The notes beneath the pieces are model-generated. The model did no database searches and was not told the DNA's origin. It was given only the letters and a program-made list of their open reading frames with translations. The position numbers and the translations under genes were made by a program. 64,000 nt of DNA, taken from the NCBI RefSeq assembly GCF_048403405.1, contig NZ_CP183136.1. One strand, given 5' to 3'. Positions 495 through 23,824 of this stretch are shown here, piece after piece. Origin of the DNA: Escherichia coli (GTDB taxonomy: Bacteria; Pseudomonadota; Gammaproteobacteria; Enterobacterales; Enterobacteriaceae). Within the stretch, counting starts at the first letter, position 1. Every line of letters starts with the position of its first letter.

Positions 495-584
495 CCGGTA
501 TTTGACAATGTCTATAAGATTAATTGTTCTGCACACTGTTAATTTGCGGAAAGTGATTTCTTCGTGGTCGGAAGCCGGATGCCT

Positions 585-1031
585 TTACTGCTTTTTATCC
601 CAGGTATAAATCCGGTAAACCTCTGATGCGTAGGCAAGACGTCTCTGGTTCTGGCGTTCGGTCTTCCTGAATCCGGCATTGTATGCACCAACGGCCTCCC
701 AGGTGACGCCCCATTTTTTAAAGGCTATTGCCAGATAATAAGCACCGGTATAAATGTTCATACAGGGATCTGTTGTCAGATGTTCCGGCTTAATTCCATA
801 GCGGGCCAGTTCGTTAAAATGCTGGGAATCTACCTGCATCAGTCCGCTGCCATATCCCGTTACCGGATTAATACCGATGGCATTAACCCGGTAACGGGAT
901 TCTTGCCATGATATCGCTCTCAGTAAATCCGGGTCTATTTTGTAATCCCGACCTGCAAGATCAAAGCAATCAGTGGCTTCGCAGATCTCATTTATAAACA
1001 TCAGGCAGATTGTTAACATCCATTTTTTCAT
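585..1031 (-). CDS. Lytic transglycosylase (F-plasmid gene X / orf169 family)
   Basis: Translation matches IncF orf169-type transglycosylase; likely start is the MKKWML methionine at 1031, the ORF-track start at 1124 runs into oriT. Confidence 0.85.
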
Positions 1032-1089
1032 TTTTCCACCTCTGGTGACTTTATCCGTAAATAATTTAACCCACTCCACAAAAAGGCTC

Positions 1090-1445
1090 AACAGGTTGGT
1101 GGTTCTCACCACCAAAAGCACCACACCCTACGCAAAAACAAGTTTTTGCTGATTTTTCTTTAATATCATAGAGTAGTATATGAAAAATTAGTATTGTCTT
1201 AACTCTCTTTATGATATTTAAAAAAGCGGTCGTCGACGCAGCTACAGCAACGCGCCGACACCGCTTTGTAGGGGTGGTACTGACTATTTTTATAAAAAAC
1301 ATTATTTTATATTAGGGGTGCTGCTAGCGGCGCGGTGTGTTTTTTTATAGGATACCGTCTAGGGGCGCTGCTAGCGGTGCGTCCCTGTTTGCACTATGAA
1401 TTCTAGTGTTTCGAAATTAACTTTGTTTTATGTTTAAAAAAGGTA
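1090..1445. other. oriT: Origin of transfer (oriT); predicted nic site on the minus strand near 1122/1123
   Basis: Minus strand reads GCGTAGGGTGT-GGTGCTTTT, the F/R100-type nic motif; sits between the transglycosylase gene and traM; AT-rich tracts. Confidence 0.8.
1310..1392. promoter_or_regulatory. Direct repeats consistent with TraM binding sites upstream of traM
   Basis: AGGGGTGCTGCTAGCGGCGCGGTG and AGGGGCGCTGCTAGCGGTGCG read as near-identical direct repeats. Confidence 0.5.
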
Positions 1446-1452
1446 ATATCTA

Positions 1453-1836
1453 ATGGCTAAGGTGAATCTGTATATCAGCAATGATGCTTATGAAAAAATA
1501 AACGCGATTATTGAAAAACGTCGACAGGAAGGGGCAAGAGAAAAAGATGTCAGTTTTTCAGCAACGGCTTCAATGCTTCTTGAACTGGGTCTTCGTGTAT
1601 ATGAGGCTCAGATGGAGCGCAAAGAGTCTGCATTTAATCAGGCCGAGTTTAATAAACTACTTCTTGAATGCGTTGTAAAAACACAGTCATCAGTAGCGAA
1701 AATTTTGGGTATTGAGTCTCTCAGTCCTCATGTCTCAGGAAATCCAAAGTTTGAATATGCCAATATGGTTGAAGATATCAGAGAGAAGGTGTCGGCTGAG
1801 ATGGAAAGGTTCTTTCCAAAAAATGATGATGAATAA
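1453..1836 (+). CDS. traM: TraM, oriT-binding relaxosome accessory protein
   Basis: 127-aa ORF whose sequence matches F-type TraM; immediately downstream of oriT. Confidence 0.95.
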   Translation: MAKVNLYISNDAYEKINAIIEKRRQEGAREKDVSFSATASMLLELGLRVYEAQMERKESAFNQAEFNKLLLECVVKTQSSVAKILGIESLSPHVSGNPKFEYANMVEDIREKVSAEMERFFPKNDDE

Positions 1837-1949
1837 AGGGAAATAAATTTTGACTTTGTTCAAATATCAGACTTTTTAATGGTTCAAACTGATGACAATA
1901 ATCGAGAGATAATTAGTATATTAATTACGTGGTTAATGCCACGTTAAAA

Positions 1950-2040
1950 TTTGAACTTGAAAATCGCCGATGCAGGGAGCTTGTCCCTCCCTGCATCGAC
2001 TGTCCATAGAATCCTTTGTGAGGAGGTTCCTATGTATCCG
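1950..2040 (-). ncRNA. finP: FinP antisense RNA region (approximate), complementary to the traJ leader
   Basis: Two inverted repeats (ACGTGG..CCACGT and GATGCAGGGA..TCCCTGCATC) just upstream of the traJ start; position conserved in F-like plasmids; ends not determined. Confidence 0.35.
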
Positions 2041-2726
2041 ATGGATCGTATTCAACAAAAACATGCTCGTCAAATCAGATCTGCTGGAAAATCTGACGGC
2101 AGTTATTCAGGATTATCCAAATCCAGCCTGTATCAGGGACGAAACTGGAAAATTTATTTTTTGCAATACGCTGTTTCATGAGTCATTTCTTACACATAGA
2201 TCAAAGTGCTGAAAAATGGCTTCTGTCGCAGAGAGATTTTTGTGAATTGATCTCTGTCACAGAGATGGAAGCATACAGGAATGAGCATACGCATCTTAAT
2301 CTTGTAGAGGATGTTTTTATTCAGAACAGATTCTGGACAATATCTGTCCAGTCATTTCTTAATGGACACAGAAATATTATTACTGGTGGCAATTTTATGA
2401 TGCTGCTCATGTTCGTCATAAAGACAGTTATAATCAAAAAACGATTGTCAGTGATGATATCAGAAATATAATCAGAAGAATGAGTGATGATTCTTCTGTA
2501 TCATCATATGTAAATGATGTCTTTTACTTATATAGCACCGGAATCAGTCATAATGCTATAGCAAGAATATTAAATATATCCATCTCCACATCAAAGATAA
2601 CACGCATCTCTGATATGCGACTACTTCTCTGTTTCTAATAAAGATGAGTTAATTATCTTACTCTACAATAAAAAGTTTATTTATTATTTATACGAGAAGG
2701 CTATGTGTATCATAAATACGCGTTAA
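2032..2726 (+). pseudogene. traJ: traJ (transfer activator), frame-disrupted as sequenced
   Basis: TraJ-like translation is spread over four reading frames (ORFs 1951-2181, 1970-2212, 2178-2471 and a further frame to 2726). Confidence 0.7.
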
Positions 2727-2824
2727 TAAGGTGTTGATAAAATATAGACTTTCCGTCTATTTACCTTTTCTGATTATTCTGTAAACATAAGTGGTAACCA
2801 GAAGATAAACAGCGGGAGGTGTTA

Positions 2825-3229
2825 TTGAAAAGATTTGGTACACGTTCTGCAACAGGTAAGATGGTAAAACTAAAATTACCTGTAGATGTGGAAAGTCTAT
2901 TAATTGAGGCAAGTAACAGAAGCGGAAGAAGTCGATCGTTTGAGGCAGTAATAAGACTTAAAGATCATCTTCACCGCTATCCAAAGTTTAACAGGGCAGG
3001 GAATATCTATGGTAAGTCGCTGGTTAAGTATCTGACAATGCGTCTGGATGATGAAACTAACCAGCTACTTACTTGCAGCCAAAAATCGTAGTGGATGGTG
3101 TAAAACAGATGAGGCATGCAGACAGAGTTATTGATCATTTGATCAAGTTATCCTGATTTTTATAACTCGGAGAAATATTCAGGGAGGCAGATAGAAGAGG
3201 AACGATATCAACATTTAAATACACTCTAG
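2825..3229 (+). pseudogene. traY: traY (F-type), frame-disrupted in the 3' half
   Basis: ORF 2819-3091 matches the TraY N-terminal part then stops early; the remaining TraY-like residues are in other frames. Confidence 0.65.
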
Positions 3230-3266
3230 TTTTATTCATTTATCCGTATTAATTAGAGGTAATCTT

Positions 3267-3637
3267 ATGAATGCTGTTTTAAGTGTTCAGGGTGCTTCTG
3301 CGCCCGTCGAAAAGAAGTCGTTTTTTTCTAAATTCACTCGTCTGAATATGCTTCGCCTGGCTCGCGCAGTGATCCCGGCTGCTGTTCTGATGATGTTCTT
3401 CCCTGCAGCTGGCGATGGCCGCTGGCAGCAATGGTCACGGACCTGATGGCTAAGCGGTCAGGACCACGGTTAAGGCGACCTTCGGTAAGGACTCCAGTAT
3501 CGTTAAATGGGTTGTTCTGGCTGAAGTTCTGGTCGGTGCAGTCATGTACATGATGACCAAAAACGTCAAGTTCCTGGTCGGCTTTGCCATACATCTCTGT
3601 ATTTATTGCTGTGGGTATGGCCGTCGTTGGCTTCTGA
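3267..3637 (+). pseudogene. traA: traA (propilin), frame-disrupted
   Basis: ATG at 3267 gives the pilin leader, then the frame breaks near 3400-3440; the pilin C-terminus appears in the frame of ORF 3544-3963. Confidence 0.7.
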
Positions 3638-3651
3638 CAGGAAATAAAACG

Positions 3652-3963
3652 ATGTCGGGAGACGAGAATAAACTTAAGAAATATCGTTTCCCGGAAACAC
3701 TGACCAACCAGAGCCGCTGGTTTGGCCTGCCACTGGATGAACTGATCCCCGCAGCAATCTGTATTGGCTGGGGTATCACAACATCGAAATATCTGTTCGG
3801 TATTGGTGCAGCGGTTCTGGTTTATTTCGGGATTAAAAAACTGAAAAAAGGGCGGGGCAGTTCCTGGTTACGTGACCTGATTTACTGGTATATGCCAACA
3901 GCCCTGCTGCGCGGTATTTTTCATAATGTTCCCGATTCGTGTTTCCGGCAGTGGATTAAATAG
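3652..3963 (+). CDS. traL: TraL, pilus assembly protein
   Basis: ATG at 3652 within ORF 3544-3963; translation [17 protein letters not shown]... matches TraL. Confidence 0.9.
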
Positions 3964-3984
3964 AACTGATACCAGGATTGTTAT

Positions 3985-4551
3985 ATGGAACACGGTGCCC
4001 GTTTAAGTACCAGTCGTGTAATGGCCATCGCCTTTATATTTATGTCAGTGCTTATTGTTCTCAGCCTCTCTGTTAACGTCATTCAGGGGGTGAATAACTA
4101 CCGTCTTCAGAATGAGCAACGCACTGCCGTGACGCCAATGGCATTTAATGCCCCCTTTGCCGTGTCACAGAACAGTGCCGACGCCTCTTATTTACAGCAG
4201 ATGGCGCTGTCATTTATTGCCCTCCGTCTGAATGTTTCATCAGAAACCGTCGATGCCTCACATCAGGCGCTTCTGCAATATATCCGCCCGGGCGCACAGA
4301 ACCAGATGAAAGTTATTCTGGCTGAAGAAGCGAAGCGTATTAAAAACGATAACGTGAACTCAGCCTTTTTCCAGACCAGTGTTCGTGTCTGGCCTCAGTA
4401 TGGCCGTGTGGAAATTCGAGGTGTGCTTAAAACCTGGATTGGTGATTCAAAACCTTTCACTGATATCAAACATTACATCCTTATTCTGAAGCGGGAAAAC
4501 GGGGTGACCTGGCTGGATAATTTCGGGGAAACAGACGATGAGAAAAAATAA
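3985..4551 (+). CDS. traE: TraE, pilus assembly protein
   Basis: 188-aa ORF with N-terminal membrane anchor; TraE family; conserved order. Confidence 0.9.
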
Positions 4552-5266
4552 TACGGCAATAATATTCGGCAGCCTGTTTTTTTCCTGCAGCGTGATGGCC
4601 GCAAACGGTACGCTGGCCCCCACCGTGGTGCCAATGGTGAACGGTGGTCAGGCCAGTATTGCCATCAGCAATACCAGCCCGAATCTGTTTACCGTTCCCG
4701 GTGACCGGATTATCGCCGTGAACAGTCTGGATGGTGCCCTGACCAATAATGAGCAGACCGCCTCCGGCGGTGTGGTGGTTGCCACCGTCAACAAAAAGCC
4801 CTTTACGTTCATTCTGGAAACAGAACGTGGTCTGAATCTTTCCATTCAGGCCGTTCCCCGTGAAGGCGCGGGGCGTACCATTCAGCTGGTCAGTGACCTG
4901 CGCGGAACCGGAGAAGAAGCCGGTGCGTGGGAAACGTCCACGCCTTACGAATCCCTGCTTGTGACCATCAGCCAGGCCGTCCGTGGCGGAAAATTACCCG
5001 CAGGCTGGTATCAGGTCCCAGTGACAAAGGAAACCCTGCAGGCCCCGGCGGGGCTGTCTTCAGTGGCAGATGCCGTATGGACGGGGAATCACCTGAAGAT
5101 GGTCCGCTTTGCCGTGGAAAATAAAACGCTGTCTGCCCTGAATATCCGGGAAAGTGACTTCTGGCAGCCGGGAACCCGTGCCGTGATGTTCAGCCAGCCT
5201 GCCAGCCAGTTACTGGCAGGTGCGCGCATGGATGTGTATGTCATCCGTGACGGGGAGGGCAACTGA
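4538..5266 (+). CDS. traK: TraK, secretin-like T4SS component
   Basis: 242-aa ORF with signal peptide; overlaps traE and traB as in F. Confidence 0.9.
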
Positions 5267-6693
5267 TGGCCAGTATCAATACCATTGTGAAACGCAAGCA
5301 GTACCTGTGGCTGGGGATTGTGGTTGTCGGTACAGCCTCCGCGATTGGTGGGGCACTGTATCTGTCTGATGTGGACATGTCCGGTAACGGTGAAACCGTG
5401 GCTGAACAGGAGCCTGTGCCGGATATGACCGGTGTGGTGGATACGACCTTTGATGACAAGGTGCGTCAGCATGCCACCACCGAGATGCAGGTGACGGCAG
5501 CGCAGATGCAGAAGCAGTATGAGGAAATCCGTCGTGAGCTGGATGTTCTGAACAAACAGCGCGGTGATGACCAGCGTCGTATTGAAAAGTTGGGACAGGA
5601 CAATGCCGCCCTGGCAGAGCAGGTAAAAGCCCTGGGTGCTAATCCCGTCACGGCGACCGGTGAGCCTGTACCGCAGATGCCTGCCTCACCGCCCGGCCCG
5701 GAAGGCGAACCACAGCCAGGAAACACCCCCGTATCCTTCCCGCCGCAGGGCAGCGTTGCTGTTCCACCGCCGACGGCGTTTTATCCCGGGAATGGTGTCA
5801 CGCCACCACCACAGGTGACGTACCAGTCTGTGCCGGTGCCTAACCGGATACAGCGTAAGGTGTTTACCCGTAATGAGGGAAAACAGGGACCATCACTGCC
5901 GTACATTCCGTCAGGAAGTTTTGCGAAAGCCATGCTGATTGAAGGGGCGGATGCCAATGCCTCTGTCACCGGTAATGAATCCACGGTGCCGATGCAGCTG
6001 CGTATCACCGGCCTGGTGGAAATGCCGAACAGCAAGACGTATGACGCAACGGGATGTTTTGTGGGTCTGGAAGCCTGGGGGGATGTGTCCAGTGAGCGTG
6101 CCATTGTACGCACCCGCAATATCAGTTGCCTGAAGGACGGCAAAACTATTGATATGCCGATTAAGGGGCATGTCAGCTTCCGGGGTAAAAACGGTATCAA
6201 GGGCGAAGTGGTGATGCGTAACGGCAAAATCCTCGGCTGGGCATGGGGCGCGGGATTTGTTGACGGTATCGGTCAGGGAATGGAGCGCGCCTCCCAGCCG
6301 GCTGTCGGGCTGGGTGCCACAGCCGCTTACGGGGCTGGTGATGTCCTGAAAATGGGTATCGGTGGCGGCGCATCGAAAGCCGCACAGACGCTCAGTGACT
6401 ACTACATCAAACGTGCCGAACAGTATCACCCGGTGATACCGATTGGTGCGGGCAACGAAGTGACCGTGGTGTTCCAGGACGGCTTCCAGCTGAAAACCGT
6501 GGAAGAGATGGCGCTGGAACGCACGCAGAGCAGAGCGGAAGAAGACAATCCGGAAAGTCCGGTTCCTGTTCCGCCATCGGCTGAAAGTCATCTTAACGGC
6601 TTTAATACTGACCAGATGCTGAAGCAGCTGGGCAACCTGAATCCGCAGCAGTTTATGTCCGGCAGCCAGGGAGGGGGCAACGATGGCAAATAA
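5266..6693 (+). CDS. traB: TraB, T4SS inner-membrane component (VirB10-like)
   Basis: 475-aa ORF with a proline-rich region and C-terminal conserved domain. Confidence 0.9.
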   Translation: MASINTIVKRKQYLWLGIVVVGTASAIGGALYLSDVDMSGNGETVAEQEPVPDMTGVVDTTFDDKVRQHATTEMQVTAAQMQKQYEEIRRELDVLNKQRGDDQRRIEKLGQDNAALAEQVKALGANPVTATGEPVPQMPASPPGPEGEPQPGNTPVSFPPQGSVAVPPPTAFYPGNGVTPPPQVTYQSVPVPNRIQRKVFTRNEGKQGPSLPYIPSGSFAKAMLIEGADANASVTGNESTVPMQLRITGLVEMPNSKTYDATGCFVGLEAWGDVSSERAIVRTRNISCLKDGKTIDMPIKGHVSFRGKNGIKGEVVMRNGKILGWAWGAGFVDGIGQGMERASQPAVGLGATAAYGAGDVLKMGIGGGASKAAQTLSDYYIKRAEQYHPVIPIGAGNEVTVVFQDGFQLKTVEEMALERTQSRAEEDNPESPVPVPPSAESHLNGFNTDQMLKQLGNLNPQQFMSGSQGGGNDGK

Positions 6694-7273
6694 TATGTCG
6701 TCCCGTCAGGCGTGCCATGCCGCCCGGTATGTTGTCGCCCGGGTTCTGCGAGGACTGTTCTGGTGTCTGAAGTACACCGTCATTCTGCCACTGGCCACAA
6801 TGGCCCTGATGGCTCTGTTTGTTTTATGGAAGGACAACACCACGCCGGGGAAATTACTGGTTAAGGAGATTAACTTCGTAAGACAAACAGCACCTGCCGG
6901 ACAGTTCCCGGTCAGTGAATGCTGGTTTTCTTCCTCTGATTCTTCAGGCAGATCAGAAATACAGGATATCTGCCATTACCGCGCGGCTGATGCTGCAGAT
7001 TATGTCAGGGAGACTGACCGGTCACTGATGCAACTGGTCACCGCATTATGGGCAACACTGGCACTGATGTATGTCTCGCTGGCAGCGATCACCGGGAAAT
7101 ATCCGGTGCGACCAGGAAAAATGAAATGTATCCGGGTGGTAACCGCAGATGAACATCTGAAGGAAGTTTATACGGAAGACGCTTCCCTGCCGGGAAAAAT
7201 CAGGAAATGCCCTGTTTATCTTCCTGATGACAGAACAAACAGAAACAACGGAGATAAAAATGAACATGCGTAA
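6683..7273 (+). CDS. traP: TraP
   Basis: 196-aa membrane protein ORF in the conserved position after traB. Confidence 0.85.
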   Translation: MANNMSSRQACHAARYVVARVLRGLFWCLKYTVILPLATMALMALFVLWKDNTTPGKLLVKEINFVRQTAPAGQFPVSECWFSSSDSSGRSEIQDICHYRAADAADYVRETDRSLMQLVTALWATLALMYVSLAAITGKYPVRPGKMKCIRVVTADEHLKEVYTEDASLPGKIRKCPVYLPDDRTNRNNGDKNEHA

Positions 7274-7457
7274 TATTAATGTTATTACAGCCCTCTCTGT
7301 GCCGGGTAAAACCGTGTCAGATGATTTTATGCATGCTGTTCTCAGTAACTGCGCCACAAGAATCGTACTTCCTGCACCGGAGAAATTCGGTTCTGAGTCA
7401 TTGCCGGACAATTTTAATATGACTGCTGTCGGTGTGATGAAGAATTCAGAAATATAA
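7260..7457 (+). CDS. trbD: TrbD
   Basis: Small ORF starting MNMRNINVIT... at the ATG at 7260 within ORF 7227-7457. Confidence 0.75.
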   Translation: MNMRNINVITALSVPGKTVSDDFMHAVLSNCATRIVLPAPEKFGSESLPDNFNMTAVGVMKNSEI

Positions 7458-7468
7458 GGAACCCTTCG

Positions 7469-7720
7469 ATGAATAAGCTGGTTTCTGATGGCAGCGTCAA
7501 AAAAATAAATTATCCGGTGCTGTATGAGTCCGGAATAACACCTCCGTTATGTGAAGTCAGTGCACCAGAACCTGATGCGGGTGGGAAACGCATTGTGGCA
7601 TATGTTTATAAATCATCACGGAGTACGGTTTTTGAAAATCCTGACATTGTAAAAACCTGTACGGTCAGGGATTTGAAGAAGGATTTTGTGAACTGCGATG
7701 AGAAAGGTGAGGGACAATGA
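7469..7720 (+). CDS. trbG: TrbG
   Basis: 83-aa ORF in conserved position between trbD and traV. Confidence 0.8.
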   Translation: MNKLVSDGSVKKINYPVLYESGITPPLCEVSAPEPDAGGKRIVAYVYKSSRSTVFENPDIVKTCTVRDLKKDFVNCDEKGEGQ

Positions 7721-8232
7721 AACAGATTTCTTTCTTTATTCCTCTGCTGGGGACCTTATTACTTTCCGGCTGTGCCGGAACCAGTACGGAATTTGAGTGT
7801 AACGCCACCACATCCGATACCTGTATGACGATGGAGCAGGCCAATGAGAAGGCCAAAAAACTGGAGCAGTCCTCAGAAGCAAAGCCGGTTGCGGCATCAC
7901 TGCCGCGCCTGGCTGAAGGGAACTTCCGGACAATGCCGGTGCAGACCGTCACCGCGACCACTCCGTCCGGCAGCAGACCTGCGGTGACAGCACATCCGGA
8001 GCAGAAACTGCTGGCACCTCGCCCGCTGTTTACCGCTGCCCGGGAAGTGAAAACGGTTGTTCCGGTCAGTTCAGTTACGCCGGTAACACCTCCTCGTCCG
8101 CTAAGAACGGGTGAGCAGACGGCAGCATTATGGATAGCGCCTTATATTGATAACCAGGATGTTTATCATCAGCCATCCAGCGTGTTTTTTGTTATTAAAC
8201 CGTCTGCGTGGGGAAAACCACGTATTAATTAA
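7717..8232 (+). CDS. traV: TraV, outer-membrane lipoprotein of the T4SS
   Basis: Lipobox LLSGCAG near the N-terminus; 171 aa. Confidence 0.9.
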   Translation: MKQISFFIPLLGTLLLSGCAGTSTEFECNATTSDTCMTMEQANEKAKKLEQSSEAKPVAASLPRLAEGNFRTMPVQTVTATTPSGSRPAVTAHPEQKLLAPRPLFTAAREVKTVVPVSSVTPVTPPRPLRTGEQTAALWIAPYIDNQDVYHQPSSVFFVIKPSAWGKPRIN

Positions 8233-8366
8233 CTGGCCCTGAAGTTGTATATCAGCCGGCAATGCCGGCGGGCTTTCTGTATTCAAAATCCGCCTGTAAA
8301 ACGAGTGCCCTGTGCGTGAAAAGGGATGGGCGGTAGCGTGTCAGAACATGTCGGGAGGAATATTCC

Positions 8367-8588
8367 GTGAGTGATGAAGCCGATGAAGCATATTCAGTGA
8401 CAGAACAACTGACCATGACAGGAATAAACCGGATACGCCAGAAAATAAATGCTCATGGTATTCCTGTTTATCTCTGTGAAGCATGCGGAAATCCTATTCC
8501 GGAAGCCCGGCGGAAAATATTTCCCGGTGTGACGTTGTGCGTTGAATGTCAGGCGTATCAGGAAAGACAGAGAAAACATTATGCATAA
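8367..8588 (+). CDS. traR: TraR, DksA/TraR-type zinc-finger protein
   Basis: 73-aa ORF with C4 motif CEACG...CVEC. Confidence 0.9.
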   Translation: MSDEADEAYSVTEQLTMTGINRIRQKINAHGIPVYLCEACGNPIPEARRKIFPGVTLCVECQAYQERQRKHYA

Positions 8589-8747
8589 GTCAGTCGCAGA
8601 ACATAGTGATTTAATTCCGGATGAACATGAGTGGATATTCAGAAAACAGAAATCTTTGTATATGCGCCGGGAAATGGCGCGTTAATTACAGGTATTCCCT
8701 TCATGGCTACCGCATTTCTCGCTTTATTTTTCAACTAAGGAATTCAT

Positions 8748-11375
8748 GTGAATAACCCACTTGAGGCCGTCACTCAGGCGGTTAACTCCCTCGTCACAGC
8801 ACTGAAACTGCCTGACGAATCCGCAAAGGCCAATGAAGTTCTGGGCGAAATGAGCTTCCCGCAGTTCAGCCGTCTGCTGCCGTACCGTGATTACAACCAG
8901 GAATCCGGTCTGTTCATGAATGACACCACGATGGGCTTTATGCTGGAAGCCATCCCCATCAATGGGGCGAATGAGTCCATTGTGGAGGCCCTCGATCACA
9001 TGCTGCGCACCAAACTGCCGCGCGGTATTCCGTTGTGTATCCATCTGATGTCCAGTCAGCTGGTTGGTGACAGGATTGAATACGGGCTGCGTGAGTTCTC
9101 CTGGTCAGGTGAACAGGCTGAACGGTTTAACGCCATTACCCGGGCCTATTATATGAAAGCGGCAGCGACACAGTTTCCGCTGCCGGAGGGGATGAATCTG
9201 CCCCTGACCCTGCGCCATTACCGGGTGTTTATCTCGTACTGTTCTCCTTCGAAGAAAAAAAGCCGGGCCGACATTCTGGAAATGGAAAACCTGGTGAAAA
9301 TCATCCGGGCGTCGTTACAGGGGGCCAGTATCACCACACAGACGGTGGATGCACAGGCCTTTATCGATATTGTCGGGGAGATGATTAACCATAACCCGGA
9401 CTCCCTGTACCCGAAAAGACGTCAGCTGGACCCGTATTCTGATCTGAATTATCAGTGTGTGGAGGACAGTTTTGATCTGAAAGTCCGGGCTGATTACCTG
9501 ACGCTGGGCCTGCGTGAGAACGGCAGGAACAGCACGGCCCGCATCCTGAATTTCCATCTGGCCCGTAACCCGGAAATCGCCTTCCTGTGGAACGTGGCCG
9601 ACAACTACAGCAACCTGCTGAACCCGGAACTGTCCATCTCCTGTCCGTTCATCCTGACGCTGACTCTGGTGGTGGAAGACCAGGTGAAAACCCACAGCGA
9701 AGCCAACCTGAAGTACATGGACCTGGAGAAAAAGTCGAAGACCTCCTATGCCAAATGGTTTCCGTCCGTGGAGAAAGAGGCGAAGGAGTGGGGGGAACTG
9801 CGTCAGCGGCTGGGCTCCGGTCAGTCCTCCGTGGTGTCCTACTTCCTCAACATCACAGCATTCTGCAAGGACAATAATGAAACGGCGCTGGAAGTGGAGC
9901 AGGACATCCTGAACAGCTTTCGTAAAAACGGTTTTGAGCTGATTTCACCGCGCTTTAACCACATGCGCAATTTCCTGACCTGCCTGCCCTTTATGGCCGG
10001 GAAAGGGCTGTTTAAACAGTTGAAAGAGGCCGGAGTGGTTCAGCGCGCAGAGAGCTTTAATGTTGCCAACCTGATGCCGTTAGTGGCGGATAACCCCCTG
10101 ACACCGGCAGGTCTGCTGGCACCCACCTACCGTAACCAGCTGGCGTTTATCGATATTTTCTTCCGGGGGATGAATAACACCAACTACAACATGGCGGTCT
10201 GTGGCACCTCCGGGGCCGGTAAAACCGGGCTGATACAGCCACTTATCCGCAGCGTGCTGGACTCCGGAGGCTTTGCCGTGGTGTTCGACATGGGGGATGG
10301 ATACAAGTCCCTGTGTGAGAACATGGGCGGGGTGTATCTGGACGGTGAAACCCTGCGTTTTAACCCGTTTGCGAACATCACCGATATTGACCAGTCAGCG
10401 GAGCGTGTCCGTGACCAGTTGTCAGTGATGGCCAGCCCCAACGGTAACCTGGATGAAGTGCATGAAGGTCTGCTGTTGCAGGCGGTCAGAGCCTCCTGGC
10501 TGGCCAAAGAGAACAGAGCACGTATTGATGACGTGGTGGATTTCCTGAAAAACGCCAGTGACAGCGAGCAGTATGCCGAGTCACCGACTATCCGCAGCCG
10601 TCTGGACGAAATGATTGTGCTGCTTGACCAGTACACTGCCAACGGCACTTACGGCCAGTATTTTAACTCTGATGAGCCGTCCCTGCGGGATGACGCAAAA
10701 ATGGTGGTGCTGGAGCTGGGCGGACTGGAAGACCGTCCGTCACTGCTGGTTGCGGTGATGTTCTCCCTGATTATCTACATCGAGAACAGGATGTACCGCA
10801 CGCCGCGTAACCTCAAGAAACTGAACGTTATTGATGAAGGCTGGCGTCTGCTGGACTTCAAAAATCACAAGGTCGGTGAATTTATTGAGAAAGGCTACCG
10901 TACGGCCCGCCGTCATACCGGTGCCTATATCACCATCACACAGAACATCGTCGACTTTGACTCTGATAAGGCCTCCAGTGCTGCCCGCGCGGCATGGGGT
11001 AACTCCTCCTACAAAATTATCCTCAAACAGAGTGCGAAGGAGTTCGCGAAATACAACCAACTGTATCCGGACCAGTTCCTGCCACTGCAGCGCGACATGA
11101 TTGGTAAGTTTGGTGCGGCCAAAGACCAGTGGTTCAGTTCCTTCCTGCTGCAGGTGGAAAACCATTCCTCCTGGCACCGTCTGTTTGTGGACCCGTTAAG
11201 CCGCGCCATGTACAGCTCTGACGGCCCGGATTTTGAGTTTGTGCAGCAGAAGCGTAAAGAGGGGCTGAGTATTCATGAGGCAGTGTGGCAGCTGGCGTGG
11301 AAGAAGTCAGGGCCGGAAATGGCTTCGCTGGAAGCCTGGCTGGAAGAACATGAGAAATACAGGAGTGTGGCATGA
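8748..11375 (+). CDS. traC: TraC, T4SS ATPase (VirB4-like)
   Basis: 875-aa ORF, GTG start, Walker A GTSGAGKT; matches F TraC along its length. Confidence 0.97.
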   Translation: MNNPLEAVTQAVNSLVTALKLPDESAKANEVLGEMSFPQFSRLLPYRDYNQESGLFMNDTTMGFMLEAIPINGANESIVEALDHMLRTKLPRGIPLCIHLMSSQLVGDRIEYGLREFSWSGEQAERFNAITRAYYMKAAATQFPLPEGMNLPLTLRHYRVFISYCSPSKKKSRADILEMENLVKIIRASLQGASITTQTVDAQAFIDIVGEMINHNPDSLYPKRRQLDPYSDLNYQCVEDSFDLKVRADYLTLGLRENGRNSTARILNFHLARNPEIAFLWNVADNYSNLLNPELSISCPFILTLTLVVEDQVKTHSEANLKYMDLEKKSKTSYAKWFPSVEKEAKEWGELRQRLGSGQSSVVSYFLNITAFCKDNNETALEVEQDILNSFRKNGFELISPRFNHMRNFLTCLPFMAGKGLFKQLKEAGVVQRAESFNVANLMPLVADNPLTPAGLLAPTYRNQLAFIDIFFRGMNNTNYNMAVCGTSGAGKTGLIQPLIRSVLDSGGFAVVFDMGDGYKSLCENMGGVYLDGETLRFNPFANITDIDQSAERVRDQLSVMASPNGNLDEVHEGLLLQAVRASWLAKENRARIDDVVDFLKNASDSEQYAESPTIRSRLDEMIVLLDQYTANGTYGQYFNSDEPSLRDDAKMVVLELGGLEDRPSLLVAVMFSLIIYIENRMYRTPRNLKKLNVIDEGWRLLDFKNHKVGEFIEKGYRTARRHTGAYITITQNIVDFDSDKASSAARAAWGNSSYKIILKQSAKEFAKYNQLYPDQFLPLQRDMIGKFGAAKDQWFSSFLLQVENHSSWHRLFVDPLSRAMYSSDGPDFEFVQQKRKEGLSIHEAVWQLAWKKSGPEMASLEAWLEEHEKYRSVA

Positions 11376-11758
11376 GTTCAACGCAGAAACCCGCCGACGT
11401 CATGGCAGAACGACGCAGCCACTGGTGGTGGACGGTGCCGGGATGCCTGGCAATGGTGTTACTGAACGCAGCCGTCAGTTACGGCATTGTCAGACTGAAC
11501 GCACCGGTGACTGTCGCCTTCAACATGAAACAGACCGTGGATGCGTTTTTTGACAGAGCCAGTCAGAAACAACTGTCAGAAGCGCAGTCAAAAGCCCTTT
11601 CAGCGCGTTTTAACACGGCACTGGAAGCCAGCCTGCAGGCGTGGCAGCAGAAACACCACGCGGTCATTCTGGTGTCGCCTGCTGTGGTACAGGGGGCACC
11701 GGATATCACCCGGGAAATCCAGCAGGATATTGCCCGGCGAATGAGGGCGGAACCATGA
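11372..11758 (+). CDS. trbI: TrbI
   Basis: 128-aa ORF overlapping the traC stop; conserved order. Confidence 0.85.
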   Translation: MSSTQKPADVMAERRSHWWWTVPGCLAMVLLNAAVSYGIVRLNAPVTVAFNMKQTVDAFFDRASQKQLSEAQSKALSARFNTALEASLQAWQQKHHAVILVSPAVVQGAPDITREIQQDIARRMRAEP

Positions 11759-12387
11759 GATGCCGGGGGCTGATTGCCCTGCTGATATGGGGGCAGAGTG
11801 TGGCCGCCGCCGATCTTGGTACCTGGGGCGATCTGTGGCCGGTAAAGGAGCCGGACATGCTGACGGTGATCATGCAGCGCCTGACGGCACTGGAGCAGTC
11901 CGGTGAGATGGGCCGGAAAATGGATGCCTTTAAGGAGCGGGTGATCCGCAACAGTCTGCGGCCCCCTGCCGTGCCCGGTATCGGACGCACGGAGAAATAC
12001 GGCAGCCGGTTGTTTGACCCGTCCGTCAGACTGGCTGCGGATATCCGGGATAACGAAGGGCGGGTGTTTGCCCGTCAGGGTGAAGTGATGAATCCGCTGC
12101 AGTATGTTCCTTTTAACCAGACGCTGTATTTCATCAATGGCGATGATCCGGCGCAGGTGGCCTGGATGAAACGCCAGACGCCGCCCACACTGGAGAGCAA
12201 AATTATCCTCGTGCAGGGCAGTATCCCGGAGATGCAGAAGTCTCTGGACAGCCGTGTTTACTTTGACCAGAACGGTGTGCTCTGCCAGCGCCTCGGCATT
12301 GATCAGGTCCCGGCACGGGTGAGCGCCGTTCCCGGCGATCGCTTCCTGAAGGTGGAATTTATTCCGGCAGAGGAGGGCAGAAAATGA
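11755..12387 (+). CDS. traW: TraW, pilus assembly protein
   Basis: ATG at 11755 within ORF 11641-12387 gives a signal peptide MRCRGLIALLIWGQSVAA. Confidence 0.85.
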   Translation: MRCRGLIALLIWGQSVAAADLGTWGDLWPVKEPDMLTVIMQRLTALEQSGEMGRKMDAFKERVIRNSLRPPAVPGIGRTEKYGSRLFDPSVRLAADIRDNEGRVFARQGEVMNPLQYVPFNQTLYFINGDDPAQVAWMKRQTPPTLESKIILVQGSIPEMQKSLDSRVYFDQNGVLCQRLGIDQVPARVSAVPGDRFLKVEFIPAEEGRK

Positions 12388-13376
12388 AGCGAAGGCTGTG
12401 GCTGCTGATGTTATTCCTTTTCGCCGGTCATGTCCCTGCGGCGTCTGCGGATTCTGCCTGTGAGGGGCGTTTTGTAAACCCGATCACAGATATCTGCTGG
12501 AGCTGTATTTTCCCGCTCTCGCTGGGCAGTATCAAAGTCAGTCAGGGGAAGGTCCCCGACACGGCGAACCCGTCGATGCCCATTCAGATTTGTCCGGCAC
12601 TGCCGCCGCTGTTCAGGCGTATCGGGCTGGCCATTGGTTACTGGGAGCCGATGGCGTTGACGGACGTCACCCGGTCACCGGGATGCATGGTGAACCTGGG
12701 CTTCAGCCTGCCGGCTTTTGGTAAAACGGCACAGGGAACGGCGAAAAAGGATGAGAAGCAGGTAAATGGGGCGTTCTATCACGTTCACTGGTACAAATAC
12801 CCGCTGACGTACTGGCTGAACATCATCACATCGCTGGGCTGTCTGGAAGGTGGTGACCTGGATATCGCTTATCTTTCTGAAATCGACCCCACCTGGACGG
12901 ACAGCAGCCTGACCACCATTCTCAATCCGGAAGCTGTCATCTTTGCCAATCCGATAGCACAGGGAGCCTGCGCAGCAGATGCGATTGCCAGCGCCTTTAA
13001 TATGCCTCTCGATGTTCTGTTCTGGTGTGCCGGTTCGCAGGGAAGTATGTACCCGTTCAATGGCTGGGTGAGTAATGAGTCCAGTCCGTTGCAGTCCTCC
13101 CTGCTGGTCAGTGAACGCATGGCGTTCAAGCTGCACCGTCAGGGCATGATTATGGAAACCATCGGGAAAAATAACGCCGTCTGTAATGAATATCCATCCC
13201 CAATCCTGCCCAAAGAACGCTGGCGTTACCAGATGGTGAATATGTACCCGGACAGCGGACAGTGCCACCCGTTCGGGCGCAGTGTGACCCGCTGGGAAAC
13301 CGGGAAAAATCCGCCCAATACAAAGAAAAACTTCGGCTACCTGATGTGGCGTAAACGTAACTGTGTCTTCCTGTGA
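12384..13376 (+). CDS. traU: TraU, pilus assembly / DNA transfer protein
   Basis: 330-aa ORF with signal peptide, conserved order. Confidence 0.9.
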   Translation: MKRRLWLLMLFLFAGHVPAASADSACEGRFVNPITDICWSCIFPLSLGSIKVSQGKVPDTANPSMPIQICPALPPLFRRIGLAIGYWEPMALTDVTRSPGCMVNLGFSLPAFGKTAQGTAKKDEKQVNGAFYHVHWYKYPLTYWLNIITSLGCLEGGDLDIAYLSEIDPTWTDSSLTTILNPEAVIFANPIAQGACAADAIASAFNMPLDVLFWCAGSQGSMYPFNGWVSNESSPLQSSLLVSERMAFKLHRQGMIMETIGKNNAVCNEYPSPILPKERWRYQMVNMYPDSGQCHPFGRSVTRWETGKNPPNTKKNFGYLMWRKRNCVFL

Positions 13377-13381
13377 GGTGA

Positions 13382-14023
13382 ATGATGAAGCTGAGTATGA
13401 AATCTCTGGCAGCACTGCTGATGATGCTGAACGGGGCGGTTATGGCGTCAGAAAACGTGAACACTCCTGAAAACCGCCAGTTCCTGAAGCAGCAGGAAAA
13501 TTTAAGCAGACAACTGCGTGAAAAACCTGACCATCAGCTGAAAGCCTGGGCGGAGAAGCAGGTGCTGGAAACCCCCCTTCAGCGTTCAGATAACCATTTC
13601 CTGGATGAGCTGGTTCGTAAACAGCAGGCTTCGCAGGACGGGAAACCCCGGCAGGGTGCCCTGTATTTTGTGTCGTTTTCCATTCCCGAAGAGGGGCTGA
13701 AACGAATGCTGGGCGAAACCCGGCACTACGGTATACCCGCCACACTGCGGGGCATGGTGAACAATGACCTGAAGACCACCGCTGAAGCCGTGCTGTCCCT
13801 GGTGAAAGACGGCGCGACTGATGGTGTTCAGATCGACCCGACGCTGTTTTCACAGTACGGCATTCGCAGTGTACCGGCACTGGTGGTGTTCTGCAGTCAG
13901 GGATACGACATCATCCGGGGAAACCTGCGGGTCGGCCAGGCGCTGGAGAAAGTGGCCGCCACGGGTGACTGCCGGCAGGTGGCTCATGATTTACTGGCAG
14001 GGAAAGGAGATTCCGGGAAATGA
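13382..14023 (+). CDS. trbC: TrbC, pilus assembly protein
   Basis: 213-aa ORF with signal peptide, conserved order. Confidence 0.85.
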   Translation: MMKLSMKSLAALLMMLNGAVMASENVNTPENRQFLKQQENLSRQLREKPDHQLKAWAEKQVLETPLQRSDNHFLDELVRKQQASQDGKPRQGALYFVSFSIPEEGLKRMLGETRHYGIPATLRGMVNNDLKTTAEAVLSLVKDGATDGVQIDPTLFSQYGIRSVPALVVFCSQGYDIIRGNLRVGQALEKVAATGDCRQVAHDLLAGKGDSGK

Positions 14024-15828
14024 AACGTATTTTACCTCTGATACTGGCTCTGGTTGCCGGCATGGCACAGGCTGACAGCAACAGTGATTACCGGGCCGGC
14101 TCTGATTTTGCTCACCAGATCAAAGGGCAGGGAAGCAGCAGTATTCAGGGCTTTAAGCCACAGGAGAGTATCCCCGGCTATAACGCGAATCCGGACGAGA
14201 CAAAATATTACGGTGGCGTGACTGCCGGCGGGGATGGCGGCCTGAAAAATGACGGCACCACGGAATGGGCGACCGGTGAAACCGGAAAAACCATCACAGA
14301 GTCATTCATGAACAAGCCGAAAGACATTCTTTCACCGGATGCACCGTTTATCCAGACCGGCAGGGATGTGGTGAACCGGGCTGACAGCATTGTGGGAAAC
14401 ACCGGGCAGCAGTGCAGTGCGCAGGAGATTAGCCGGAGTGAATACACGAATTACACCTGTGAGAGGGATTTACAGGTGGAGCAGTACTGCACACGAACTG
14501 CCCGTATGGAGCTGCAGGGGAGTACCACATGGGAAACCCGGACGCTGGAGTATGAAATGAGTCAGCTACCTGCACGTGAAGTGAATGGTCAGTATGTTGT
14601 CTCCATTACCTCTCCCGTTACCGGTGAAATTGTCGATGCGCATTACAGCTGGAGTCGTACTTACCTGCAGAAGAGTGTACCTATGACAATTACAGTACTG
14701 GGAACCCCACTGAGCTGGAATGCCAAATACTCAGCAGATGCCTCATTTACACCAGTACAGAAAACACTGACTGCCGGTGTTGCTTTTACGTCATCTCACC
14801 CCGTCCGGGTCGGGAATACAAAATTCAAACGTCATACGGCAATGAAGCTGCGTCTGGTTGTCAGGGTAAAAAAAGCCTCGTACACCCCGTATGTTGTCTG
14901 GTCTGAAAGCTGCCCGTTCAGCAAGGAGCTGGGGAAACTGACAAAAACAGAATGTACGGAGGCTGGCGGGAACAGGACGCTGGTGAAAGACGGTCAGTCA
15001 TACAGCATGTACCAGAGCTGCTGGGCATACCGGGACACGTATGTCACGCAGTCAGCAGACAAGGGAACCTGTCAGACCTACACCGACAATCCTGCCTGTA
15101 CCCTGGTGTCACACCAGTGTGCCTTTTACTCCGAAGAAGGTGCCTGTCTGCATGAATATGCCACGTACTCCTGTGAGTCAAAAACATCCGGGAAAGTGAT
15201 GGTCTGTGGGGGAGACGTCTTCTGTCTCGATGGCGAATGCGATAAGGCTCAGAGCGGGCAGAGTAATGATTTTGCCGAAGCCGTTTCTCAGCTGGCGGCA
15301 CTGGCCGCAGCAGGTAAGGATGTTGCGGCGCTGAACGGGGTGGATGTCCGTGCTTTCACCGGTCAGGCGAAATTTTGTAAGAAGGCTGCAGCCGGATACA
15401 GCAACTGCTGTAAGGACAGCGGCTGGGGACAGGATATCGGGCTGGCCAAATGCAGCAGTGATGAAAAGGCCCTGGCTAAAGCAAAATCAAACAAACTGAC
15501 CGTCAGCGTCGGGGAGTTCTGTTCGAAGAAAGTGCTGGGTGTCTGTCTGGAGAAAAAACGCAGCTACTGTCAGTTTGATTCGAAGCTGGCGCAGATAGTC
15601 CAGCAGCAGGGGCGCAACGGTCAGTTGCGTATCAGTTTTGGTAGTGCGAAGCATCCTGACTGTCGGGGGATTACGGTTGATGAGCTGCAGAAAATTCAGT
15701 TCAACAGACTGGATTTCACTAACTTCTACGAAGACCTGATGAATAACCAGAAAATCCCGGACAGTGGCGTTCTGACGCAGAAAGTGAAAGAGCAGATTGC
15801 TGACCAGCTGAAACAGGCAGGACAGTAA
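14020..15828 (+). CDS. traN: TraN, cysteine-rich outer-membrane mating-pair stabilisation protein
   Basis: 602-aa ORF with signal peptide and many Cys in the C-terminal half. Confidence 0.95.
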   Translation: MKRILPLILALVAGMAQADSNSDYRAGSDFAHQIKGQGSSSIQGFKPQESIPGYNANPDETKYYGGVTAGGDGGLKNDGTTEWATGETGKTITESFMNKPKDILSPDAPFIQTGRDVVNRADSIVGNTGQQCSAQEISRSEYTNYTCERDLQVEQYCTRTARMELQGSTTWETRTLEYEMSQLPAREVNGQYVVSITSPVTGEIVDAHYSWSRTYLQKSVPMTITVLGTPLSWNAKYSADASFTPVQKTLTAGVAFTSSHPVRVGNTKFKRHTAMKLRLVVRVKKASYTPYVVWSESCPFSKELGKLTKTECTEAGGNRTLVKDGQSYSMYQSCWAYRDTYVTQSADKGTCQTYTDNPACTLVSHQCAFYSEEGACLHEYATYSCESKTSGKVMVCGGDVFCLDGECDKAQSGQSNDFAEAVSQLAALAAAGKDVAALNGVDVRAFTGQAKFCKKAAAGYSNCCKDSGWGQDIGLAKCSSDEKALAKAKSNKLTVSVGEFCSKKVLGVCLEKKRSYCQFDSKLAQIVQQQGRNGQLRISFGSAKHPDCRGITVDELQKIQFNRLDFTNFYEDLMNNQKIPDSGVLTQKVKEQIADQLKQAGQ

Positions 15829-15851
15829 GGTATGGGAAATAACCGGGGGAA

Positions 15852-16112
15852 ATGATGAAAGTCATATTCACGTCGAACCGTTTTATTGATTTTCTTATCC
15901 GGCTTTTGATTACAGCGATTGTCATTTCTCTGGTAATTATCTGGTCGTGGGATACGGTAAAAGAAACCACGGCAGACGGGATGCTTGCCGCTGCTTTCGT
16001 TATCCTTTACTCCGGTGTGCTCCTGTTTATTCTGTATTTTTGTTTTTCTGCCCTGACTGACCTGCAGAAACCTGATGAAAGAAAAAGTGATGAAAGGAAT
16101 GAAGATGAATAA
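15852..16112 (+). CDS. trbE: TrbE
   Basis: 86-aa small membrane protein in conserved position. Confidence 0.8.
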   Translation: MMKVIFTSNRFIDFLIRLLITAIVISLVIIWSWDTVKETTADGMLAAAFVILYSGVLLFILYFCFSALTDLQKPDERKSDERNEDE

Positions 16113-16848
16113 AGCATTACTGCCACTGTTACTCTGCTGCTTTATTTTTCCGGCGTCAGGAAAAGATGCAGGCTGGCAGTGGTATAACGAGAAAATAAAT
16201 CCGAAGGAAAAAGAAAATAAACCTGTACCTGCAGCCCCCCGTCAGGAACCGGATATTATGCAGAAACTGGCCGCACTGCAGACGGCAACAAAGCGGGCGC
16301 TGTACGAAGCCATTCTGTATCCCGGCGTGGATAATTTTGTGAAATATTTCCGGCTGCAAAATTACTGGACTCAGCAGGCCGGGCTTTTCACCATGAGCGC
16401 CAGAAAGGCCATGCTGGCACATCCTGAACTGGACTATAACCTGCAGTACAGCCATTACAACGGCACGGTACGGAACCAGCTGGCAGCAGACCAGGCGCAG
16501 CAGCGACAGGCCATTGCGAAACTGGCTGAACACTACGGCATCATGTTTTTTTACCGGGGGCAGGACCCCATCGACGGGCAGCTGGCGCAGGTCATTAATG
16601 GCTTCCGGGATACCTATGGTCTGAGTGTTATTCCCGTTTCCGTGGATGGCGTGATTAATCCGCTGTTGCCGGATTCCCGGACTGACCAGGGGCAGGCGCA
16701 GCGCCTCGGCGTGAAATATTTCCCGGCCATGATGCTGGTTGACCCGAAACAGGGTAGTGTTCGTCCGTTATCATACGGTTTTATTTCGCAGGACGACCTG
16801 GCAAAACAGTTCCTGAATGTCTCTGAGGATTTTAAACCGAATTTTTAA
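16105..16848 (+). CDS. traF: TraF, thioredoxin-fold pilus assembly protein
   Basis: ATG at 16105 within ORF 16075-16848 gives a 247-aa protein with signal peptide MNKALLPLLLCCF. Confidence 0.9.
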   Translation: MNKALLPLLLCCFIFPASGKDAGWQWYNEKINPKEKENKPVPAAPRQEPDIMQKLAALQTATKRALYEAILYPGVDNFVKYFRLQNYWTQQAGLFTMSARKAMLAHPELDYNLQYSHYNGTVRNQLAADQAQQRQAIAKLAEHYGIMFFYRGQDPIDGQLAQVINGFRDTYGLSVIPVSVDGVINPLLPDSRTDQGQAQRLGVKYFPAMMLVDPKQGSVRPLSYGFISQDDLAKQFLNVSEDFKPNF

Positions 16849-16861
16849 CCAAAGGATATAT

Positions 16862-17203
16862 ATGCATACAGGGGATTTGTGTTTTTTTACAGGTGCCAGC
16901 CTGTTTATCGTGGGGGTTGTTGGTTATTTCTTTACAGGACTAAATAATAAAGGAGTTTATCTACTGAGCTCGTTTGTCTTCTTTGTAGTAAATGTCATAA
17001 GTGTATGTATGCTGCCAGATAATTTCTTGTTTCTTTGTGGTGCGGTTATGAATCAGTGTGCCGTACCGGTTGTTTCAATGGCAGTCAGCACCATGCCGAT
17101 TATCACGAAGTTTGACAGTTTCAGAAGGATGTTTATTTGTATTATGTTGTCAGCCATATGGTCTGGAGTGATGTGGTTTTTTATTATTTCATTAGTGAAA
17201 TGA
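16862..17203 (+). CDS. trbA: TrbA, small membrane protein
   Basis: ATG at 16862 (MHTGDLCFF...) within ORF 16817-17203; hydrophobic. Confidence 0.75.
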   Translation: MHTGDLCFFTGASLFIVGVVGYFFTGLNNKGVYLLSSFVFFVVNVISVCMLPDNFLFLCGAVMNQCAVPVVSMAVSTMPIITKFDSFRRMFICIMLSAIWSGVMWFFIISLVK

Positions 17204-17519
17204 CTGGTGCTAATTTGTCATAAATGCCAAATCCAATAGTGAGGTTGATTACCACAGACCAGAGGATAAACCAGACTGCTATCCAGTGACTTCTGAATAA
17301 ATCACAAAAATAAACATAGATGATTAGAAATAGCCATATCACAACAGCGATAATTGCTATAAATAACAGTATCGTCACAAATAAATCAGCAAAGGTTTTA
17401 ATGGGGAGAGTGTGCAATAATGAATACACCAGTAAAGCAAAAGCCGCATTACCTGATAATGACTCTCTTATGATGTTTCTCACTATTTCCAGTTTTTCTT
17501 TAAAAGATCGCTTTTCCAT
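17184..17519 (-). CDS. artA: ArtA-like antisense ORF
   Basis: 111-aa hydrophobic ORF on the opposite strand between trbA and traQ, as in F; expression not inferable. Confidence 0.45.
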   Translation of the reverse strand: MEKRSFKEKLEIVRNIIRESLSGNAAFALLVYSLLHTLPIKTFADLFVTILLFIAIIAVVIWLFLIIYVYFCDLFRSHWIAVWFILWSVVINLTIGFGIYDKLAPVISLMK

Positions 17520-17599
17520 TTGTACCTCTGACTAATATCACACAAACGCGAATATTACAGACATGAATACTCTCATGTAAATAATAACCGGAGTTTAAC

Positions 17600-17884
17600 A
17601 TGATAAGTAAACGCAGATTCTCTTTACCCCGGCTTGATATTACGGGAATGTGGGTATTTTCCCTGGGCGTCTGGTTTCATATCGTCGCCCGTCTTGTTCA
17701 CAGCAAACCCTGGATGGCTTTTTTTCTGGCGGAGCTGATTGCGGCCATCCTTGTGCTGTTCGGCGCATACCAGGTGCTGGATGCATGGATTGCCCGTGTC
17801 AGCCGGGAAGAGCGTGAGGCACTGGAAGCCAGGCAACAGGCCATGATGGCAGAGCAGCAGGAGGGCGGACATGTCTCTCACTAA
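17600..17884 (+). CDS. traQ: TraQ, pilin chaperone
   Basis: 94-aa membrane protein in conserved position. Confidence 0.9.
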   Translation: MISKRRFSLPRLDITGMWVFSLGVWFHIVARLVHSKPWMAFFLAELIAAILVLFGAYQVLDAWIARVSREEREALEARQQAMMAEQQEGGHVSH

Positions 17885-18425
17885 ATTACTGCCGGTTATT
17901 CTGTTGATGATGGCCACAGGTGTGCAGGCCTCCACCCGGGATGAAATTGAACGACTCTGGCATCCGCAGGGTATGGCTGCGCAGCCTGCACAACCGGCAG
18001 CAGACACGCCAGCCAGGACAGACAAGACAGAAAAGCCGGCTCCCCGCTGGTTCCGCCTCAGCAACGGCAGGCAGGTTAACCTGGCCGACTGGAAGGTGGT
18101 GCTGTTTATGCAGGGGCATTGCCCTTACTGTCACCAGTTTGACCCGGTACTGAAGCAGCTGGCACAGCAGTACGGCTTTTCCGTTTTTCCCTACACTCTG
18201 GATGGTCAGGGGGATATGGCCTTTCCGGAAGCATTACCGGTGCCACCGGACGTGATGCAGACCTTCTTCCCGAATATCCCGGTGGCCACACCGACCACCT
18301 TCCTGGTCAACGTCAACACGCTTGAGGCATTACCGCTTTTACAGGGGGCAACGGATGCCGCCGGTTTTATGGCGCGGATGGATACCGTTCTGCAGATGTA
18401 CGGAGGGAAAAAAGGTGCGAAATAA
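17871..18425 (+). CDS. trbB: TrbB, periplasmic thioredoxin-like disulfide isomerase
   Basis: Signal peptide and CPYC active-site motif. Confidence 0.9.
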   Translation: MSLTKLLPVILLMMATGVQASTRDEIERLWHPQGMAAQPAQPAADTPARTDKTEKPAPRWFRLSNGRQVNLADWKVVLFMQGHCPYCHQFDPVLKQLAQQYGFSVFPYTLDGQGDMAFPEALPVPPDVMQTFFPNIPVATPTTFLVNVNTLEALPLLQGATDAAGFMARMDTVLQMYGGKKGAK

Positions 18426-18729
18426 GCAGGTGGTGTTACTCATTGCCGGAATATCCGGCATCGCGACGGGAATAATCGTCAGCCTGAATATTCCCTTTAT
18501 CCGTCAGGGGCTTTTTTATCCCGCCAGTCCTGTAGAAATAGTCGTTTCGCTGTGTCTTACCTTTTCTGTTTCTGTTGTGTTTTTTGTGGGGGCAATTGTG
18601 GGATGGATTTCGGTGTCTGAAATATATTACAGCCGCATGACCGGTCTGAATGAATCATCAGTAATATCAGAGGAAACTTATAATGACAAAAAACAAAAAG
18701 AATCAGGAATTCAAAATCAGAAAAATTAG
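18415..18729 (+). CDS. trbJ: TrbJ
   Basis: GTG at 18415 within ORF 18322-18729 gives MRNKQVVLLIAG..., a small membrane protein. Confidence 0.7.
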   Translation: MRNKQVVLLIAGISGIATGIIVSLNIPFIRQGLFYPASPVEIVVSLCLTFSVSVVFFVGAIVGWISVSEIYYSRMTGLNESSVISEETYNDKKQKESGIQNQKN

Positions 18730-23217: not shown

Positions 23218-23290
23218 TACCTGACGCCATCAGAAGAGGCTGTGAAAACAGATGGTGGATGATAAGAAGGATACGACTGAAGGGGCCATT

Positions 23291-23699: not shown

Positions 23700-23824
23700 T
23701 GATTACTATTCGTAATTATTTCTCTTGGTGTATACCATAGATATAAATCGTTATAATCTCTCTGCAATAGTCTCAGTAATAGGTCTGTTCAAAAAAGAGT
23801 CTGTTAGTTAAAAGGATATTCTGG

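Follow-up and report, generated by a model that had tools for sequence, protein, structure and literature searches.

Frame disruptions in traJ, traY and traA of a microcin-type IncFII plasmid sequence very probably come from a consensus of two tra alleles

Introduction

The traJ and traY genes of the F-factor type, named TRAJ1_ECOLI and TRAY1_ECOLI, stand in the order traM-finP-traJ-traY-traA-traL. A second type is found in pMccB17 (ON989342), one of the ~70-kb IncFII F2:A-:B- microcin B17 plasmids (ON989342, PMC10912980; CP090301). The tra region of pMccB17 is intact, and its traJ (672 nt) and traY (228 nt) are of the shorter, R100-like type. In NZ_CP024860 (IS3), NZ_CP141101 (IS5) and NZ_CP184263 (IS1), the traJ-traY region is interrupted by a single large IS in an otherwise intact sequence, and loss of tra activation is expected. 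In long-read assembly, the collapse of two alleles with nearby variants has been described to give indel errors and apparent frameshifts that are gone on phasing; the alleles in that case came from homologous chromosomes in a diploid eukaryote (Cosentino et al. 2021, PMC8445201).

Here we analyse a 64,000-nt stretch of Escherichia coli DNA (contig NZ_CP183136.1, assembly GCF_048403405.1), called the window throughout. The window shares the F-factor gene order, and its traJ and traY are identical to the F-factor type once repaired, but the copies as written have no intact frame and lie beside a traM and a backbone of the pMccB17/R100 type. Its backbone is 99-99.5% identical to that of CP090301, and it differs from pMccB17 in the F-type traJ and traY (690 and 396 nt when repaired) and in an IS903-like insertion in mcbB. 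With the three IS-inactivated relatives it has in common the region hit and the expected loss of tra activation; unlike them, it carries dozens of +1 changes and no IS. Its likeness to the case of Cosentino et al. is that alleles appear to be merged into a mosaic, the extra bases being those of the other allele and the two alleles alternating. The merged sequences would here be two F-like plasmids or plasmid variants, as judged from the sequence alone.

Results

The window opens in the last part of the leading region of an F-like plasmid and continues into the transfer region, in the order gene X - oriT - traM - finP/traJ - traY - traA - traL, colinear with annotated F-like plasmids (NZ_CP023372). 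The remaining tra operon follows traL as far as traX and finO, and the rest of the window is taken up by the IncFII replicon, the microcin B17 (mcb) operon and the leading region. Intact annotated relatives, namely NZ_CP023372, LC807779, LR890263 and NZ_AP022050, were used for alignment. The features at the start of the transfer region are as follows.

520..1124, minus strand: gene X/orf169 (SLT-domain lytic transglycosylase); the ORF as written ends early, at 585
1453..1836, plus strand: traM, intact, pMccB17/R100-type allele; NF010267, 232 bits against a cut-off of 104
1927..2037, plus strand: traJ 5' UTR, intact and full-length; RF00243, 124.4 bits against a gathering threshold of 50
1960..2038, minus strand: finP antisense RNA gene, intact and full-length; RF00107, 99.7 bits against a gathering threshold of 45
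2032..2726, plus strand: traJ, F-type; five single-base insertions, at 2076, 2197, 2382, 2385 and 2598, and no substitutions
2825..3229, plus strand: traY, F-type, 131 aa; nine inserted bases and no substitutions
3230..3266, plus strand: traY-traA spacer; five inserted bases, at 3247, 3249-50, 3255 and 3263
3267..3637, plus strand: traA (propilin); five inserted bases, at 3404, 3438, 3451, 3459 and 3591
3652..3963, plus strand: traL, intact, 100% identical to the reference; NCBIfam TraL match

Compared with NZ_CP023372 and NZ_AP022050, positions 2032-3637 hold 24 extra bases over 1.6 kb, all as insertions of 1-2 nt, with no deletions. The nine in traY are at 3072, 3116, 3150, 3173-74, 3194, 3203, 3209 and 3217, and the substitutions in traA are a mixture of F-type and pMccB17-type alleles. 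Raw translations reach stops soon after the first insertion of each gene: traJ meets its first stop after 49 codons and has no intact ORF, the traY ORF passes the insertion at 3072 and ends at residue 90, and the traA ORF stops after 59 codons. The sequence-only reading had described traJ, traY and traA as frame-disrupted, traJ several times over, between an intact traM and an intact traL. The extra bases located by alignment to the intact relatives bear this out, as do the translations of the two flanking genes. The end of traJ, however, is at 2726 and not near 2640. Compensating frameshifts that preserve function were rejected, the out-of-frame stretches containing stops and the net change being +5 in traJ, +9 (with stops) in traY and +5 in traA.

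The region is a mosaic of F-type sequence from traJ to traH and pMccB17-like sequence in traM and the backbone. From ~27.8 to 64 kb and again from 1 to 2 kb, a span that includes repA, the mcb operon, parM, the leading region and traM, the window is 99-99.5% identical to CP090301, with no indels and only 2 mismatches in the alignment bin of traM. A pMccB17-type traM beside an F-type traJ is also found in the natural plasmid LC807779. Upstream of traM, extra bases at 550 and 599 shift and truncate the 3' end of gene X; taking out these two bases gives a 200-aa product, 196/200 residues of which are identical to WP_013362798.1, and this truncation is part of the same artefact block as the lesions from traJ to traA.

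Several other features of the backbone were recorded. Between traX and finO, positions 33258-34118 match a UilS-family quorum-quenching N-acyl-homoserine lactonase (NF047920, 508.9 bits), and finO itself (34221-34781) is intact. The leading region contains a CTGCTA hexanucleotide array (~59050-59110) that exceeds its CP090301 counterpart by 3 units, or 18 nt. A 1057-bp element of the IS5 family, IS903 type, occupies 46075-47131; its terminal inverted repeats are 18 bp long (GGCTTTGTTGAATAAATC), and the target duplication is of 9 bp (AAATGTAGG). The element lies in the 5' end of mcbB, parting mcbA and its promoter from mcbB-G. The insertion looks genuine and should abolish microcin B17 production.

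When five bases are removed from traJ and nine from traY, both genes become nucleotide-identical to the F-type genes of NZ_CP023372. The repaired traJ (690 nt) encodes a protein identical at 229/229 residues to WP_000283385.1, and the repaired traY (396 nt) one identical at 131/131 residues to WP_001309237.1. Each of the two sequences is present on at least 1000 contigs, and their exact-match clusters have 2460 (TraJ) and 697 (TraY) members. Repaired TraJ scores 541.7 bits over residues 1-229 with the equivalog NF010275 (cut-off 252), a membership that holds only on condition that the insertions are artefacts, because the written sequence has no intact ORF. Repaired TraY scores 302.3 bits with the equivalog NF010303 (cut-off 232). 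Repaired TraA, of 121 aa, scores 228.8 bits with NF010294 (cut-off 150) and 131.2 bits with TIGR02758 (cut-off 76.55); this exact protein is absent from a 15-billion-sequence protein collection.

The lesions fall within 2032-3637, as the sequence-only reading had it, but are not confined there, as gene X (550, 599) and a second block are also hit. This block and the segment that separates it from the first are laid out below.

3592..19658, plus strand: clean segment of 16 kb, with the 3' end of traA and 22 intact genes from traL to trbF; no indels
19659..27782, plus strand: second insertion-only block, covering traH, traG, traS, the traT-traD spacer, traD and the 5' end of traI
19062-20448, plus strand: traH, +13 nt
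20445-23294, plus strand: traG, +24 nt
23291-23811, plus strand: traS, +11 nt
23825-24556, plus strand: traT, intact
24821-27155, plus strand: traD, +1 nt at 26276

The 5' end of traI has +8 nt. A clean 16-kb segment, nearly identical to NZ_AP022050 (roughly 3 mismatches from about 3633 to about 20500), separates the affected blocks at about 550-3591 and 19659-27782. From this core the lesions extend leftwards for about 3 kb and rightwards for about 8 kb, becoming sparser with distance. Farther on, traX is intact, and beyond 27.8 kb the indels relative to CP090301 are few, balanced and located in diverged patches. In the C-terminal region of TraD, positions 26671-26876 contain 22.9 copies of the 9-nt unit AACAGCCAC, an array that exceeds that of NZ_AP022050 by 108 nt and that of CP090301 by about 72 nt; the extra length could reflect either natural variation of the repeat or a further effect of assembly.

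Over the whole tra region, the window differs from the F-type NZ_AP022050 by 81 insertion events and one deletion, the latter being a 9-nt repeat unit. Functional natural relatives vary in another way: NZ_AP022050 and CP090301 differ by 658 substitutions and no indels from traH to traT, and by 79 substitutions and no indels from traL to traP. The insertions come in local bursts (13 in 45 nt, 11 in 90 nt), and they do not extend homopolymers: 21/71 of the extra bases repeat an adjacent letter, a share that would be about 44% if the base were random.

A three-way comparison suggested that an inserted base is mostly the one found in the other tra allele at the neighbouring polymorphic site. The origin of the extra bases was approached with exact 9-mers spanning the insertions, in a union test of F-type sequence and CP090301. 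In this test 11/84 were present in CP090301, a real enrichment over the 0.2% for simulated random insertions. The test is too strict, given that neighbouring SNPs differ, and it was replaced by a per-site allele test, in which the base inserted relative to NZ_AP022050 is compared with the CP090301 base at either flanking NZ_AP022050-CP090301 difference. The inserted base was the CP090301 base in 68/81 cases (84%), compared with 6.6% expected by simulation (binomial p~1e-66). The result by region was as follows.

traJ: 3/5 match the other allele, p=0.03
traY-traA: 16/19 match the other allele, p=4e-14
traH-traS: 42/48 match the other allele, p=2.5e-42
traD-traI: 7/9 match the other allele, p=2e-9

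Upstream of traJ the roles swap: the window is there of the pMccB17 type, and 7/14 extra bases are the F-type base (p=4e-7). The alternative base lies 5' of the resident base about as often as 3' of it (33 vs 34). Judged from these alignments, both alleles stand in tandem at a subset of SNPs.

The CP090301 allele leaves 13/81 insertions unexplained. In the traT-traD spacer, 13 single-base insertions fall within 45 nt (24736-24780), and no base is substituted relative to NZ_AP022050. The burst is not accounted for by the CP090301 allele, which has an extra gene at this spacer, and interleaved CP090301 sequence found no support as its source (longest common subsequence 27; shuffled sequences gave a mean of 24.7 and at most 30). 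The second allele may differ from CP090301 at this point.

From about 21.0 to 24.0 kb, the window alternates between the F-type and the pMccB17-type allele every 1-3 informative SNPs, with 29 allele runs over 84 informative sites in one 500-nt stretch, and window-unique substitutions are almost absent. The best match of 20900-23800 (the 3' part of traG, and traS) among 72,556 plasmids (PLSDB) is only 94.4% identical, whereas the flanks match at 99-100%. This stretch is probably a chimeric consensus, and therefore the surface-/entry-exclusion allele is unreadable from the record.

The insertion-bearing sequence is absent from every other record among 72,556 plasmids and 5,426 complete E. coli genomes; the best plasmid and E. 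coli genome matches to the disrupted region are 95-98% identical and lack the insertions. Insertion-spanning 31-32-mers were not found in genome, viral and metagenome contig collections, in which a repaired 30-mer of intact F-type traJ is present. The truncated TraJ and TraA products were not found in the protein collection, and the search for the truncated TraD product returned no record. One contig that holds the intact F-type traJ 30-mer, CAAGKF010000127.1 (30 kb), is labelled as a Lachnospiraceae MAG and is probably a mis-binned enterobacterial plasmid contig.

Discussion

Our results point with high confidence to the frame disruptions being an artefact of one consensus built from F-type and pMccB17/R100-type tra alleles. 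The sequence-only reading had preferred local sequence error to neutral decay. Error over decay is supported because the lesions are insertion-only, traJ and traY carry no substitutions, and their repair gives known proteins; the error is not local, given the second block at 19.7-27.8 kb, nor is it generic read noise. A mixed template or collapsed consensus is indicated because the extra bases are the SNP bases of the alternative allele.

The sample may have held two F-like tra regions, one F-type and one pMccB17/R100-type, most likely on co-resident or co-sampled plasmids. The two templates would share a long identical segment, roughly 3.6-19.7 kb, and reads anchored in it would pile together across the diverged flanks, which agrees with the position of the lesions on either side of the clean core. 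At some SNPs the consensus would then keep the base of one allele and insert that of the other beside it, so that each doubled SNP would add +1 nt and shift the frame. A graph- or pile-up-based long-read consensus that handles mismatches as insertion-deletion pairs is our guess, from general knowledge, at the software step. Several observations count against this account. The two reference alleles are about 3% divergent over the clean 16-kb core, yet there is no doubling there; the templates would have to be identical in this segment, or it would have to come from different data. Nor is any doubling seen in traM, where 23 SNPs separate the alleles. The 13/81 insertions and the spacer burst that the CP090301 allele leaves unexplained also weigh against it.

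Random local sequencing error, as from low-quality read tails, an unpolished gap fill or a gap-ignoring consensus, would introduce bases unrelated to any allele. It fits lesions that are insertion-only and clustered, and the insertions left unexplained by the CP090301 allele, the burst at 24736-24780 included. However, noise cannot give the agreement with the other allele seen at 68 of the 81 insertions, the insertions come without accompanying substitutions or deletions, and the bases lie outside homopolymer context. We regard this explanation as very unlikely. Homopolymer-type platform error (454, Ion Torrent or nanopore) was rejected on the low share of bases that match a neighbour (21/71) and on the lack of deletions.

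Genuine pseudogenisation would mean that traJ, traY, traA, traH, traG, traS, traD and traI are truly frameshifted and the plasmid is non-conjugative. The frameshifts do stand in the sequence as given, F-like plasmids lose transfer functions in nature, several relatives have this region broken by IS elements, and the window itself has a bona fide insertion, the IS903-like element in mcbB. Against this are the ratio of 81 insertions to 1 deletion, the 5 and 9 inserted bases in traJ and traY with no substitution in either, the copying of another allele by the inserted bases, the 22 neighbouring tra genes that are perfectly intact, and the fact that none of thousands of related records shares the insertions. 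We place its probability lower still. Neutral decay in particular, under which indels should be joined by substitutions, deletions should equal or outnumber insertions and the changes should bear no relation to other alleles, does not accord with the 81:1 ratio, the unsubstituted traJ and traY and the 84% of allele copies.

The weakest of these explanations, to which we give hardly any weight, is a real F-type x pMccB17-type recombinant whose junction zones gained genuine +1 insertions from the partner by some form of homeologous recombination or repair: both allele types are mixed in the window, natural plasmids with the same traM/traJ combination exist (LC807779, for example) and the extra bases fall in zones flanking the F-type core, but no known repair or recombination mechanism sets both SNP alleles in tandem, random patch repair of compensating differences predicts -1 as often as +1 where 81:1 is observed, and eight tra genes would be inactivated at once. 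If it were true, exchange with a co-resident F-like plasmid would give +1 bursts flanking the exchanged segment and silence transfer in one step. Stress-induced frameshifting of the DinB type, a process near oriT on F plasmids, was rejected, since the -1 deletions that it causes in mononucleotide runs are opposite to the observed insertions.

Taken together, there is only a slight chance that the insertions are real. The loss of tra activation and pilin synthesis that the sequence-only reading foresaw for real changes agrees with F biology, in which a plasmid deprived of TraJ, TraY and pilin would not transfer, but this case is most likely not the one at hand. The disruptions are almost certainly not a biological feature, and the locus almost certainly holds no new biology; as far as the repaired reading frames tell, traJ, traY and traA are probably intact on the plasmid or plasmids behind the record. 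At face value, the record describes a microcin-type IncFII plasmid with eight dead transfer genes, and surveys would wrongly score it as non-conjugative or its genes as pseudogenes. Insertion-only lesions, the lack of substitutions and the agreement of inserted bases with a second allele at neighbouring SNPs together offer a diagnostic of a collapsed two-allele consensus that requires no reads. The same test marks 19.7-27.8 kb as chimeric, so that calls of the traG/traS exclusion type and of the traD/traI junction in this plasmid are untrustworthy.
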